From NCBI GenBank assembly GCA_043809315.1, contig JAZDDX010000038.1, forward strand, positions 14,159 through 78,158: 64,000 nucleotides of DNA, written 5' to 3'. Below the pieces are notes generated by a model. That model searched no databases. It was not told the origin of the DNA and saw only the letters and a program-made list of their open reading frames with translations. The translations under genes were made by a program, and so were the position numbers. Below, piece by piece: positions 7,925 to 14,002 of this stretch. How positions within the stretch are numbered: the stretch's first letter is position 1; every line of letters starts with the position of its first letter. This DNA comes from Pseudomonadota bacterium (lineage in GTDB: Bacteria > Bdellovibrionota_G > JALEGL01 > DATDPG01).

Positions 7925-10900
7925 TTATGGTTTCGACAGCCGCCACGAGACCGGCGTCATTAATGCGCCACGATCAAAGATGAGCTTGTACGCCGTACCC
8001 CAGTTAATTTCCGAGGGTTTGGTTCCGAATGGACTCCTCAGGTCTGACGTAGATTTCACAGGCACGCCGATTCGATGGGCCAATGTGTCTGGTATTGTTC
8101 CCTTTCCAAGAGTGCAAGTTATCAGATCGAGTCTTCCAGACAGGCCCCAATTAAAGTTTCCTAGCGTAGCGACATCAAAGGATTTACTGGTATCTTGATC
8201 AAACACAAAGTCACTGTAGCCATTCACCGCAAGAGCGAACAAGAGATCAATCCTTCGAACGGATCCATGCCCGTGAATCCCTAGAATACCAAGCACGTTG
8301 GCCCCCCCCATTCTGCTGCCTCGCGCGAGAGCCGTTTCAACTGCGGGGCCGATCTGGTCCGGGTTGTCGACAACATACACGTTGGTAAAGTTACCGCTTA
8401 GCCAGGCTTCTAGTGTCCAGAGCCGCACCTCGGCGTCGGTTATTGCAGCCAATAAGTCTACATCTACAACCTTTGACTTGCGATCCGTCGTTGACGGTGG
8501 TGCCCCCTTGCGAGCCGCTTCTTCCATCATTGTCAACAGCCCTGGATCGTCAGGCGCTGGGCAGCCGCGACATGGTCCCTCGACAGGTTCGTCCTTAGTG
8601 ACTAGCTTCGTGAAGTAAAAAATGGGTCCGATTTCGACGACACCAGTAGGAACTCTCTCTTTGGCTTTTTTCTCTTCTTCTTCTCTTTTTCGCAGTTCCC
8701 CCGCCCACGCCGAATCGAGCTGTTCCTGTTCTCTTTCGCGGAGGTAGTTATCGCGGGAAGCAAACTCTTCGGACACCGGCCCGTGGAACATCTCGCAGAC
8801 TGCGCGGGCGCCGGCACAGGGGGGCCCGACGCCGGCGGGGCGGGAGAGCATGTCGGAGTCGGCCGGCCCGGAACTGAAATAGGAGCTGTGGCTCTCATCG
8901 ACATGCCCCGATGGATCGATCGAGTTGACCGGGTTGTTCCGCGCGTAAGCGTAGCGATCGAGAGATTGAGAGCCGGGGTACGGGACGATCGAGTCGGCGG
9001 AGAGGAAGCGGCCGATCTTGGGATCGTAATAGCGGGCGCTTAGATACGTGAGACCGAGTTCGTCGTCGTCACCGCCGGCGAATCCCTGGACGGAGTTCTG
9101 TCCCCGGAGCTTCCGTCCGAACGGGGTGTAATCGATCTTTTCCTCCAGTAGACCTTGGGAGTTCGTCGTTGCGCGGGCGGAGAAGAGATGATCGGTGTGG
9201 TAATAGTGTTTCCCTTGGGAGTCGACACGCGCGACTCGTTCCGGCCCGGCATAGATGTAGGTGATGTATTCCCCGCCGGACGTCCGCTCGACCCGATTCC
9301 CGAAATAGAGTCGACTTCCCTTTCGGATCCGGTTTCCGTTCGCATCGTAGTCGAAGTTGAAGAGCCATCCCCCGCCCTGGACGGAGGCGAGGCGGTCTTC
9401 GGGATCCCAAGTCATGACACGATCGCAAACGACGGTGGTGGTACCTCCGCCGGCGGATCGTTTCGCCGGCAGGAGGGACATCAAGGCGGGCGCGTCCATT
9501 TGCGTTTCATCCCCGACGGTCACCGTCCGACAACCGGCCTTCGTCATGTTCCCGTTGGCGTCGTATCCGTAGGTTCGGGATCCGACTTTCGTCACGGCGT
9601 GGAGGTGAGCGGGGTTCGTGTATTGATAGGCTCCGTTGGCGCTGTGAGAGGTGATCCTTCCCAGGGGATCGTACGAGTACGATTCGTTGATGCCGCCGGT
9701 GACGCCGGTCACCCGGTGGAGGTCGTCGTACGTGACGTTCCAGTTGAAGGCGGGATGGGTGGTGGAGGTGATGGTCTTGATCCGGCCATCCGCTTCATAT
9801 CCATCGATCTGTTCCTTGAAGATCGTGGTTCGCTCGGTGTGGGCGGCATCTTTCCAAGCCACGGTTTCAATCGACTTCAGACGACGGAGCTTGTCCGGTT
9901 CGAAGTCGTAAGTGGTGACGGCGCCGTTCGCCAACCGGATTTCTTTTTTCATCCCCTGGGGCCAGTACGAGATCTGATCGACGTAGCCCGGAACTGATTG
10001 GAGACGGCCGGCGGCGTCGTATTGATAGTCGACGGTGATTCCGATCGGGGCGGGGATGACGAGGTGGCTGGGACGGGAGGCGATGTCGTAAAAGTACCGG
10101 TACTGAATCGTGTGGGCGCCGACAGATCGGGTTTCGATGTTTTTCCGTCCCATGTCGTCGTAGTTGAACGTCTCCGAGCCGCCGGGGTAGGTGACGGTCG
10201 TGATCCGGTCGACGTTCCGGGCAGCGGCGTCGGTCCCATACGTGAAGACGACCTGGCTTCCGTTCGGGTAGATCTTTTTCGCCGGCCGTCCCTCGGTATC
10301 GTATTGGAACGCGATGGTCTGGTTCTTGGCGTCGGTGCGGGTGAGAGGGCGCCCGCCCGACGTATACGTGAACCGGATCGTGCCCCGGTCGGGATCCGTG
10401 GTCTGGAGTATCCGCCCGATCCGGTCGAAGGTGGTGGAGGAGACGTTGCCAAGCGGGTCCGCCACCTCGACCTTGGGGATTAAGGGGTTGGACGTCGTTG
10501 TCGTGGTTCGTATTGCGGTGCCGTCGTATTCGATGACCTTGCTGACGAGTTTCTCTTTGCACGAAGCCGTGGCGTGGTTCGAAGCATCGGTGACGGTGGT
10601 GCAGGCGAGATCGAACGTGCCGCGCTTGTCGGCGTAGTTGTTTTTCAAAAGAGTCTCGGTGACGCCGTCGACCTTGACAGTTTTCAACCGTCCGATGGTG
10701 TCATACGTGAAGAGCGAAACACTCGGGATTCCCGTGGCGGAGTCGAACCACTCGGTGGAGGTTTCTTGCAGCGTGGAGGCGTCGACGTACGTCGACTTCT
10801 GAACGACGTAGTCCAGGGACGTCGTGGACTTGTTGCGGGTTTCGTAGATCCTCCCGAGCCCATCGAAATAGTCTTCCGACCAGAGGCCGTCGGAGCTTCC

Positions 10901-13900: not shown

Positions 13901-14002
13901 CTCTGCCGCCGCCGGGGAGGAGGTGTCTCTTCGGTCCCCTTTCCCACAGGCAAACAACAGGGAGACCAGAAGGAGCGCGGTCGGGAATCTCCGGATCCTC
14001 AC
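7925..14002 (-). CDS. Large RHS/YD-repeat family lipoprotein with FG-GAP/VCBS-type calcium-binding repeats, RHS core and 325-aa C-terminal domain of unknown function (polymorphic-toxin architecture)
   Basis: Signal/lipobox MRIRRFPTALLLVSLLFACGKGD. At least seven DFNGDGxTDLL-type repeats and many YD repeats (YTYDTQGRP..., YDSEGRL...). The RHS core ends ...LSARYYDPKIGRFLSADS...YAYARNNPVNSIDPSGH. GTG start overlaps the upstream stop (GTGA). Confidence 0.85.
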   Translation of the reverse strand: MRIRRFPTALLLVSLLFACGKGDRRDTSSPAAAEPGIIDQIGDWLSGKSSSMSPGFNPMSVYKAIPSSLPPVTFDYRDVPVGTATYDSMKFTTSSWPVPTQIPSTSYMSALFHDMKGRRVFTGDFDGDGKTDLLHVNSYNQIGGTNTYRTIFVLYRSDGTGGFEVKARENNLGTLNEFYALGSSNRAATPAKYFAADFNGDGITDLLEMKDYSRVGTSLADPHAILWVYDSGTGLKPLFKPGSSIEGFPSPYSQVTVNGSYPASLYSSKRKGSWLVADLNRDGKADLIHIMSKGHPSVRTWLSWSTDTQVSFDVSLDWQTATYSCTGYSNLCLNSGTTSPDDPNPGSATIVDPGELWKMGDFNGDGSTDLLHLYEDPLGKMHLWRWDSNATSFSVGELTNPDPNVQVERLHTALTADFNGDGVTDQLFPTLRRLWFGNGAGFDLFDVGDDSETSGFCGGEYTACSNIGNLAWVPRELIGATDLNRDGKTDLFYTISPTMNGNNGREIHFLTYDSKGQFRGHKTIVATGTDRNQEQFVQFGDFDGDSKADILSVVDGSTPASFSDCTNLPSGATCVPCAGVPGWGSFCGGGFLFQYACGQTQNFTGTFLGTLGCYHNNSYYGGTVQGGVPQAKIDLHRDDPFGGTDEFPRDNLLVSVTKEMGGAEKATYGVISQQAGDPVLRNSFPVVTKTSIYPHGLSGSSFSQTFEYKRATWLSPKGRFLGFATWKGTDSRGGIKETAFRLPTAETASECMFGGEGLNLTKDSDGKIISATRYDYTDADTGNGLCSSHTTSTRVYACEGSTTSALGLDNPALCKQVRTDFEYDEYGNEKKMKSFGEYQGTTTDLLPEDNTVTFRLFNPNKAAFIVNLPFYVSIISVDGNGTPISKLTYTEFLYDHRSVTQPPLKGLPTKISRWISGTTYAHTETTYDTQGRPLTVKDPDGYITTVAYDSEGRLQSTTDPGGHVTQTSWTVFGEVEIVGDPNGITVTNTYDKLGRKFLESYANGSFVQFQYLNVGNPCLAAGEACQRTRVARSDGSSDGLWSEDYFDGLGRIYETRNKSTTSLDYVVQKSTYVDASTLQETSTEWFDSATGIPSVSLFTYDTIGRLKTVKVDGVTETLLKNNYADKRGTFDLACTTVTDASNHATASCKEKLVSKVIEYDGTAIRTTTTTSNPLIPKVEVADPLGNVSSTTFDRIGRILQTTDPDRGTIRFTYTSGGRPLTRTDAKNQTIAFQYDTEGRPAKKIYPNGSQVVFTYGTDAAARNVDRITTVTYPGGSETFNYDDMGRKNIETRSVGAHTIQYRYFYDIASRPSHLVIPAPIGITVDYQYDAAGRLQSVPGYVDQISYWPQGMKKEIRLANGAVTTYDFEPDKLRRLKSIETVAWKDAAHTERTTIFKEQIDGYEADGRIKTITSTTHPAFNWNVTYDDLHRVTGVTGGINESYSYDPLGRITSHSANGAYQYTNPAHLHAVTKVGSRTYGYDANGNMTKAGCRTVTVGDETQMDAPALMSLLPAKRSAGGGTTTVVCDRVMTWDPEDRLASVQGGGWLFNFDYDANGNRIRKGSRLYFGNRVERTSGGEYITYIYAGPERVARVDSQGKHYYHTDHLFSARATTNSQGLLEEKIDYTPFGRKLRGQNSVQGFAGGDDDELGLTYLSARYYDPKIGRFLSADSIVPYPGSQSLDRYAYARNNPVNSIDPSGHVDESHSSYFSSGPADSDMLSRPAGVGPPCAGARAVCEMFHGPVSEEFASRDNYLREREQEQLDSAWAGELRKREEEEKKAKERVPTGVVEIGPIFYFTKLVTKDEPVEGPCRGCPAPDDPGLLTMMEEAARKGAPPSTTDRKSKVVDVDLLAAITDAEVRLWTLEAWLSGNFTNVYVVDNPDQIGPAVETALARGSRMGGANVLGILGIHGHGSVRRIDLLFALAVNGYSDFVFDQDTSKSFDVATLGNFNWGLSGRLDLITCTLGKGTIPDTLAHRIGVPVKSTSDLRSPFGTKPSEINWGTAYKLIFDRGALMTPVSWRLSKP

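Follow-up and report, generated by a model that had tools for sequence, protein, structure and literature searches.

Results

A two-gene locus for an RHS protein with predicted export

We analysed a 64,000-nt stretch of DNA (hereafter the window) from contig JAZDDX010000038.1 of a metagenome-assembled genome (MAG) of a Pseudomonadota bacterium. Its minus strand encodes, at 7925..14002, a 2025-aa FG-GAP/rearrangement hotspot (RHS) protein (MFH1263841.1), and this gene, together with the open reading frame (ORF) directly upstream, probably forms a two-gene RHS polymorphic toxin of the TcdB/TcaC type, i.e., one resembling the BC part of the toxin complex (Tc) toxins, with a 325-aa cargo. The features that suggest this are two coupled genes, predicted export signals on both products, a lipobox, a putative propeller, an RHS shell, an autoprotease core in which the Arg/Asp/Asp residues are intact, and a cargo of foreign composition. 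The preliminary description of this DNA, made from its letters alone, had listed a lipobox, at least seven DFNGDGxTD repeats, the RHS core, the 325-aa tip and the EEEEKK and CRGC motifs, all of which we find again; it gave neither the minus strand nor the upstream ORF, which carries an SpvB domain, as part of a two-gene unit.

The main gene is one unbroken ORF of 2025 codons, on the minus strand like every feature of the two genes given below, that begins with GTG at 14002 and ends in a stop codon at 7925-7927. Its product opens with MRIRRFPTALLLVSLLFAC, in which a charged n-region and a hydrophobic core lead to an L-F-A-C lipobox; the lipobox cysteine is Cys19, and glycine stands at the +2 position (13946..14002). 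The pattern read from the sequence was [LVI][ASTVIF][GAS]C preceded by an n-region with positive charges and then by a hydrophobic h-region, and by our own reading MRIRRFPTALLLVSLLFAC also satisfies the PROSITE-type lipobox rule, including K or R in the first seven residues. By this pattern match the protein is a predicted lipoprotein.

Downstream of the signal peptide, residues 117-551 (12350..13654) form an FG-GAP/VCBS region, recognized in Pfam as FG-GAP_3 (PF13517, 3.2e-24) and FG-GAP (PF01839, 4e-16). It contains seven calcium-loop motifs of the form D-x-[ND]-x-D-[GS]-x-x-D, at residues 124, 197, 278, 361, 417, 482 and 541, and presumably folds as a beta-propeller. The RHS/YD repeat shell then occupies approximately residues 820-1624 (9131..11545), as judged from RHS_repeat (PF05593, 5.2e-38) in Pfam, YD_repeat_2x (TIGR01643, 4e-24) in NCBIfam and a precomputed match to PF25023 (TEN_YD-shell). 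YD repeats had been said to number in the dozens; they are present, but that count was loose, since the strict pattern [YF]DxxG gives 15 matches, the first of which lies within an FG-GAP loop, leaving approximately 14 YD motifs.

The ORF immediately upstream (13999..14880) encodes 293 aa with a signal peptide and an SpvB N-terminal domain (Pfam PF03534, 4.6e-9). It aligns to residues ~30-290 of single-chain relatives of the main protein with E ~1e-33, and therefore the same machine is encoded here in two pieces. Specifically, the TGA stop of the SpvB ORF overlaps the GTG start of the RHS gene (GTGA, 13999..14002), and an AGGA lies ~10 nt before the start of the RHS gene. By these signs the SpvB ORF and the RHS gene are two translationally coupled genes, of which the RHS gene is the larger part. 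A comparable split is found in Geotalea uraniireducens Rf4, where a 113-aa SpvB ORF (locus L002, 7493-7834) is followed by a 1517-aa FG-GAP/RHS protein (L002, 8001-12554). About a dozen relatives have no SpvB domain in the same chain and may be split likewise. We also considered a single gene broken by a frameshift, and reject it because a convincing lipoprotein signal opens the second ORF, the SpvB ORF stops at a domain boundary, and Geotalea is split in the same way.

The RHS core and the predicted cleavage site

The shell is followed by a complete RHS-associated core (aa 1625-1700, 8903..9130), defined by NCBIfam and by the alignment of relatives. TIGR03696 is matched over its full length (1-76 of 76) with 68.7 bits (E 4.6e-19) against a cut-off of 32.5. 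The absence of a cocoon-closing core from a profile search had been named beforehand as something that would speak against the toxin architecture; the profile search finds the core complete.

To compare the active residues we aligned the cores of 119 relatives. The columns of R1657, D1670 and D1696 are invariant (119/119), P1691 is kept in 118 and G1699 in 117, and the protein studied here keeps all five. The essential motif of TcC proteins is PxxxxDxxG (Song et al. 2021, PMC7861908). The core ends in DPSGH (aa 1696-1700, window 8917..8903), which had been taken for a variant ending. This description does not hold for the clade, where the motif and catalytic residues are intact and histidine is the commonest P-1 residue (60 of the 119 relatives, ahead of Leu with 20 and Asn with 10); a simpler count of DPxGx motifs also ranks His first, with 58 matches. 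Among TcC proteins more broadly, a polar or charged P-1 residue, His included, occurs in 29% (PMC7861908). After residue 1700 column conservation collapses, with the top residue of a column shared by at most 20/119 sequences, and this drop is the expected place of the cleavage site and of the hypervariable boundary. By analogy with characterized relatives, the predicted autoproteolytic site lies after H1700. The full core and the loss of conservation beyond it agree with the original reading of the architecture as that of an RHS polymorphic toxin. What changes is the assignment to the teneurin type: the closest class is TcdB/TcaC-type (Tc BC-like), neither teneurin nor T6SS (type VI secretion system).

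The tip is a maintained reading frame of foreign composition

The tip (aa 1701-2025) comprises 325 aa, with a mass of 35.3 kDa and an isoelectric point (pI) of 5.2. Its first part (aa 1701-1835, 8498..8902) is acidic and contains four cysteines (C1729, C1736, C1811, C1814) and a long charged helix with EEEEKK at aa 1774-1779; the CRGC motif is at aa 1811-1814. The cysteines are arranged as C1729-x6-C1736 and C1811-x2-C1814 (window 8795..8818 and 8561..8572) on either side of the helix, and could form a zinc site or disulfides. The second part (aa 1836-2025, 7928..8497) is an orphan, probably globular, with H1910 and H1912 in the motif GIHGHG and its sole cysteine, C1963, in ITCTLGKG.

The tip has been maintained as coding sequence: when its 325 codons (975 nt) are shuffled 20000 times, the frame never stays open, the shuffle mean being 13 stops, and the last 190 codons alone stay open in 1/20000 shuffles, while each of the other five frames over the tip contains 6-17 stops. 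The GC contents of the first and second codon positions keep the order GC1>GC2 expected of coding sequence. A non-coding or chimeric 3' end, which we had considered, is rejected on the 0/20000 result.

The composition of the tip is nevertheless foreign to its surroundings. GC content at third positions (GC3) drops from 0.77 to 0.53 at a change point near codon 1745 (window ~8770; log-likelihood ratio 20), compared with 0.75 over the shell and 0.71-0.83 in neighbouring genes (ccmC, ccmD, ccmF, the SpvB ORF and an outer-membrane-protein-like ORF). For the last 190 codons GC3 is 0.54, under every 190-codon window of the shell (minimum 0.65), and overall GC dips to 0.51 at window positions 8001-8500. 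This is what replacement of the tip by recombination would leave. The break lies ~45 codons past the predicted cleavage site, not at the site itself, and therefore the recombination junction seems to be inside the first segment of the tip.

Relatives of the protein

A search with the whole protein gave 462 relatives, the best of which is only 32% identical. Among the 120 listed of these 462, most are single chains of ~2000-2300 aa with SpvB, FG-GAP, TcdB_midN, RHS and TEN_YD-shell domains, and most of the named relatives among the matches listed come from environmental MAGs. This is the domain order of the TcdB/TcaC-type polymorphic toxins, i.e., a signal peptide, SpvB, an integrin-like beta-propeller, RHS repeats and a variable tip (Zhang et al. 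2012, Biol Direct 7:18, PMC3482391). A lipoprotein-like start is found in only 4/121 relatives; in most, the N-terminus is an ordinary signal peptide.

Clustering of the tips from 120 relatives gives 84 clusters, and 76 of these contain a single tip. Song et al. report 39.8% singleton clusters of hypervariable regions (HVRs) and an open rarefaction curve (PMC7861908). An unannotated orphan tip is thus the usual condition in the TcdB/TcaC-type family. The cargoes of TcC proteins are 201-400 aa long and below 40 kDa (PMC7861908), a range that includes the tip described here.

Genomic context

The 3' end of the RHS gene faces a convergent ccmD gene (45 aa, 7766..7903, plus strand), named from its translation, whose stop is 21 nt from the stop codon of the RHS gene. 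For this reason no immunity gene can follow the RHS gene. ccmD is the last gene of a cytochrome c maturation cluster (ccmE-like, ccmF, ccmA-like ABC, ccmB, ccmC, ccmD; 1275..7903, plus strand) that reaches as far as the RHS gene's 3' end; ccmE, ccmF, ccmA and ccmD were named by reading translations, not by family search. Inside the cluster lies a 325-aa CarboxypepD_reg-like ORF (4829..5806). In tblastn searches of the window, with core, tip, RHS repeats and FG-GAP region as queries, neither a second RHS core nor a paralogue or orphan tip/immunity cassette turned up.

On the other side, 120 nt upstream of the SpvB ORF and on the same strand, there is a 323-aa ORF (15001..15972) without a family match. 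Its translation shows a signal peptide and a C-terminus ...VTVRIF that is outer-membrane-barrel-like, and it is a candidate member of the operon.

The loci of relatives differ in what follows the toxin gene. In the relative with a Tox-ART-HYD1 tip a small ORF and then a Macro-domain ORF lie downstream, and in the relative with a Tox-REase-7 tip a 246-aa ORF begins 17 nt downstream. Relatives with recognizable toxin tips (ART, REase) thus have adjoining immunity-type genes, and therefore the class does carry toxins. The closest relative resembles the present locus in having no immunity gene, with dnaX 75 nt downstream.

We also found that genes for outer-membrane proteins adjoin the SpvB/FG-GAP/RHS genes in 4/5 of the relatives' loci examined. 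These encode a GspD-like secretin (L003, 2734-4824), an OEP/TolC-like protein with SPOR (L005, 2391-4613), an OMP_b-brl barrel (L004, 3445-4245), and a Phenol_MetA_deg barrel together with an OmpW-like barrel (L002, 6079-7290 and 12821-13495). These proteins and the 323-aa protein of the window have no mutual sequence similarity. Their position hints that cocoon toxins without TcA may have a dedicated exit through the outer membrane.

Discussion

Alternative explanations

Several results weigh against our assignment of the locus to the TcdB/TcaC-type toxins, or against an active cargo. The TcdB_toxin_midN-like stretch (PF12256; aa 650-743, 11774..12055) reaches only 22.0 bits (E 1.1e-4), below the Pfam cut-off of 24.8. 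The pI of the tip, 5.2, is under the value of >8 once proposed for Tc cargoes, although the pI lies under 7 in 36.5% of natural HVRs (PMC7861908). Directly downstream of the RHS gene, where ccmD adjoins, the window has no immunity gene, and Pfam scans of 20 window ORFs find no TcA, VgrG, PAAR or Hcp gene. The tip itself finds no family. A word-indexed search of 5.8e9 proteins returned nothing, an exhaustive phmmer search of 1.84e9 representative proteins returned only the protein itself and a low-complexity match to EEEEKK, and phmmer against the PDB gave noise only (E>0.5). The profile searches that the preliminary description had asked for gave nothing in Pfam (E≤10), NCBIfam or PADLOC, and in PHROGs the sole match, at E 0.35, was to a PHROG whose function is unknown; on the DNA side (GTDB genomes, JGI metagenomes, IMG/VR, plasmids and phages), scans with confirmation by tblastn were likewise empty. 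Single-sequence AlphaFold2 models have a mean predicted local distance difference test (pLDDT) of 40.6 over the full tip and 33.8 over aa 1836-2025, both unusable, because no alignment is available for the tip; the sole confident part is the long charged helix, tip residues ~45-82. Compared by phmmer and hhalign with the tips of 119 relatives, the tip reached a probability of 4.6% at best. By eye, HGHG and CTLGKG can also be read as parts of an alpha/beta-hydrolase, a Rossmann fold or a methyltransferase, but these readings have no profile support and we set them aside.

These results can be explained in other ways than by a TcdB/TcaC-type toxin with a working cargo. We consider it unlikely, though it deserves the most attention among the alternatives, that the tip is not a working toxin at all, i.e., that it is a decaying or never-functional remnant of a tip swap, or a non-toxic cargo, in a locus that may be inactive. 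A singleton tip without a relative in any search, an atypical codon composition, the failure to predict a structure, and a window with neither an immunity gene nor a delivery partner would all be expected of such a remnant. However, a decaying tip would hardly keep a 325-codon frame open where shuffles expect 13 stops (0/20000), nor the GC1>GC2 coding pattern, and the catalytic core that precedes it is intact. Orphan tips are moreover normal even among characterized Tc toxins (PMC7861908). The missing partners could alternatively mean that the two genes are the BC part of a classical ABC (Tc) toxin against eukaryotes, with TcA encoded elsewhere in the genome, which we regard as highly improbable. 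Anti-eukaryotic Tc toxins typically have no immunity gene, and SpvB, the propeller, the RHS shell and the TcC-like size of the cargo would fit. Orphan TcC genes far from TcA are also documented (PMC7861908). Against this, no TcA-type gene is present among the 20 window ORFs scanned or in the five relatives' loci examined, relatives bear antibacterial-type tips with immunity genes, and the best relative is only 32% identical, most of the named ones being environmental MAGs. In addition, we know of no TcB that carries a lipid anchor.

The remaining alternatives concern what the tip is. Its last ~190 aa could be a very divergent caspase-like cysteine peptidase of clan CD (Tox-Caspase, the C80 cysteine protease domain (CPD) or the DUF4347 type), acting as a toxin or as a processing protease, with H1910 or H1912 after one beta-strand and C1963 after the next. 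The pattern is apparent by eye: 'ILGIHGHG' is followed 51-53 residues on by 'LDLITCTLGKG', which contains C1963, and then by 'GVPVKSTSD', and both the order and the spacing of the His/Cys pattern mirror the DUF4347 consensus (HG...YGC...ADVAAS). This consensus matches PF14252 at 1e-70, with a weak Peptidase_C80 match at 1.3e-3. Caspase-like domains are known as C-terminal toxins of TcdB/TcaC-type polymorphic toxins (PMC3482391), and the DUF4347 protein PA0256 is a putative T6SS effector (PMC8262886). The statistics do not bear the likeness out. A Pfam hmmscan of the tip gives no family at E≤10, BLASTP of the tip against the DUF4347 consensus gives E 3.4 in the wrong register, and hhalign of the tip against a DUF4347 alignment of 106 sequences, from 120 real members collected, gives a probability of 0.26%. 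Hmmsearch with --max scores -2.2 bits, which 720 of the 1146 scoring shuffles (2000 made) equalled or beat; the PDB search with the tip returned neither 9qpe_G nor any CPD, and the AlphaFold2 models are unusable for checking a His-Cys fold. With no score above the shuffled controls, the tip is rejected as a member of DUF4347 or clan CD on statistics, and we hold this explanation to be very unlikely. If true, it would still make the tip a known kind, caspase-like tips being documented in TcdB/TcaC-type proteins. We would give slightly more credit, while thinking it distinctly doubtful, to the proposal that the last ~190-280 residues represent a new toxin domain not sampled before, with a new fold or as a new His/Cys enzyme family, which came from a lower-GC donor and is delivered without TcA or T6SS from a two-chain cocoon anchored in the outer membrane, possibly with the help of the neighbouring outer-membrane protein, against non-self such as protists. 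A non-self target of this kind would explain the absent immunity gene.

Two observations touch on the same protein families. The PDB chain 9qpe_G is a solved structure labelled 'DUF4347 domain-containing protein', and we would guess that its chain letter G fits a complex with an Hcp hexamer, like that of PA0256 (PMC8262886). The window also encodes a genuine clan-CD enzyme, unrelated to the RHS tip: an 889-aa gingipain-type protease at 30832..33501 (plus strand) with Peptidase_C25 (3e-50) and a propeptide.

A possible mode of action

If the two genes do encode a TcdB/TcaC-type toxin, the solved TcB-TcC and Rhs structures suggest how it would work. The SpvB chain and the RHS sheet would together make up a closed cocoon with the propeller and the core as its plugs, and the core would cleave after His1700, freeing the cargo inside the cocoon, where it would be held largely unfolded. 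To judge from their signal peptides, both chains would leave the cytoplasm via Sec, and the shell would carry a lipid anchor, which, given Gly at the +2 position, would probably sit in the outer membrane. Class membership suggests that the cargo would be a toxin released into another cell. Our best guess is that it would be an enzyme residing in the last 190 aa, possibly using H1910 or H1912 together with C1963. Since an immunity gene is absent, the target may be non-self, e.g., eukaryotic grazers, but this absence is also compatible with an immunity gene that lies elsewhere or was lost, or with an inactive cargo.

The architecture belongs to a known class, and an orphan tip is the default of the family. 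Should the tip be an active toxin, the open-ended cargo repertoire of RHS and Tc proteins would gain another effector domain, uncharacterized and so far unique. The wider question is that of the family: hundreds of Sec-exported SpvB-propeller-RHS cocoons occur in environmental bacteria without TcA or T6SS, and the question is by which route they deliver their cargo. A single orphan MAG sequence makes it no more testable than its many relatives do.

Comparison with known systems

The T6SS Rhs effectors, such as RhsA of Pseudomonas protegens, Tse5 and TseI, share with the present protein an RHS cocoon, a C-terminal aspartyl autocleavage core and an enclosed variable toxin. The typical T6SS Rhs protein has a DPxGL ending, and its gene precedes an immunity gene. 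The present locus differs from them in its Sec signal peptides and in that the protein and the ORFs scanned show no PAAR, VgrG, chaperone or T6SS genes. To DUF4347 (PF14252), the Peptidase_C80 CPD and Tox-Caspase the tip is alike by eye only, in the succession of a strand with HG, 51-53 residues, and a strand with Cys.

The TcB-TcC cocoon of the Tc toxins (TcdB2-TccC3 of Photorhabdus, YenB-YenC2 of Yersinia) is closer: it likewise has two chains, an SpvB N-domain, an FG-GAP propeller, an RHS shell and an aspartyl autoprotease with PxxxxDxxG. In contrast to it, the break between the chains here comes behind the SpvB domain instead of at the TcB/TcC boundary, the window contains no TcA, the shell has a predicted lipid anchor, and the nearest relatives found are no more than 32% identical. 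The TcB propeller has six blades, whereas we count seven FG-GAP motifs.

The nearest system is the TcdB/TcaC-type class. The present locus is set apart from it by an SpvB domain on a separate, translationally coupled ORF (a separate ORF also in Geotalea), by a lipobox of its own on the RHS chain, by the lack of a downstream immunity gene and by its orphan tip, but it has the same set of domains in the same order, and shares with the class the Sec signal peptides, the RHS core and the hypervariable tip.

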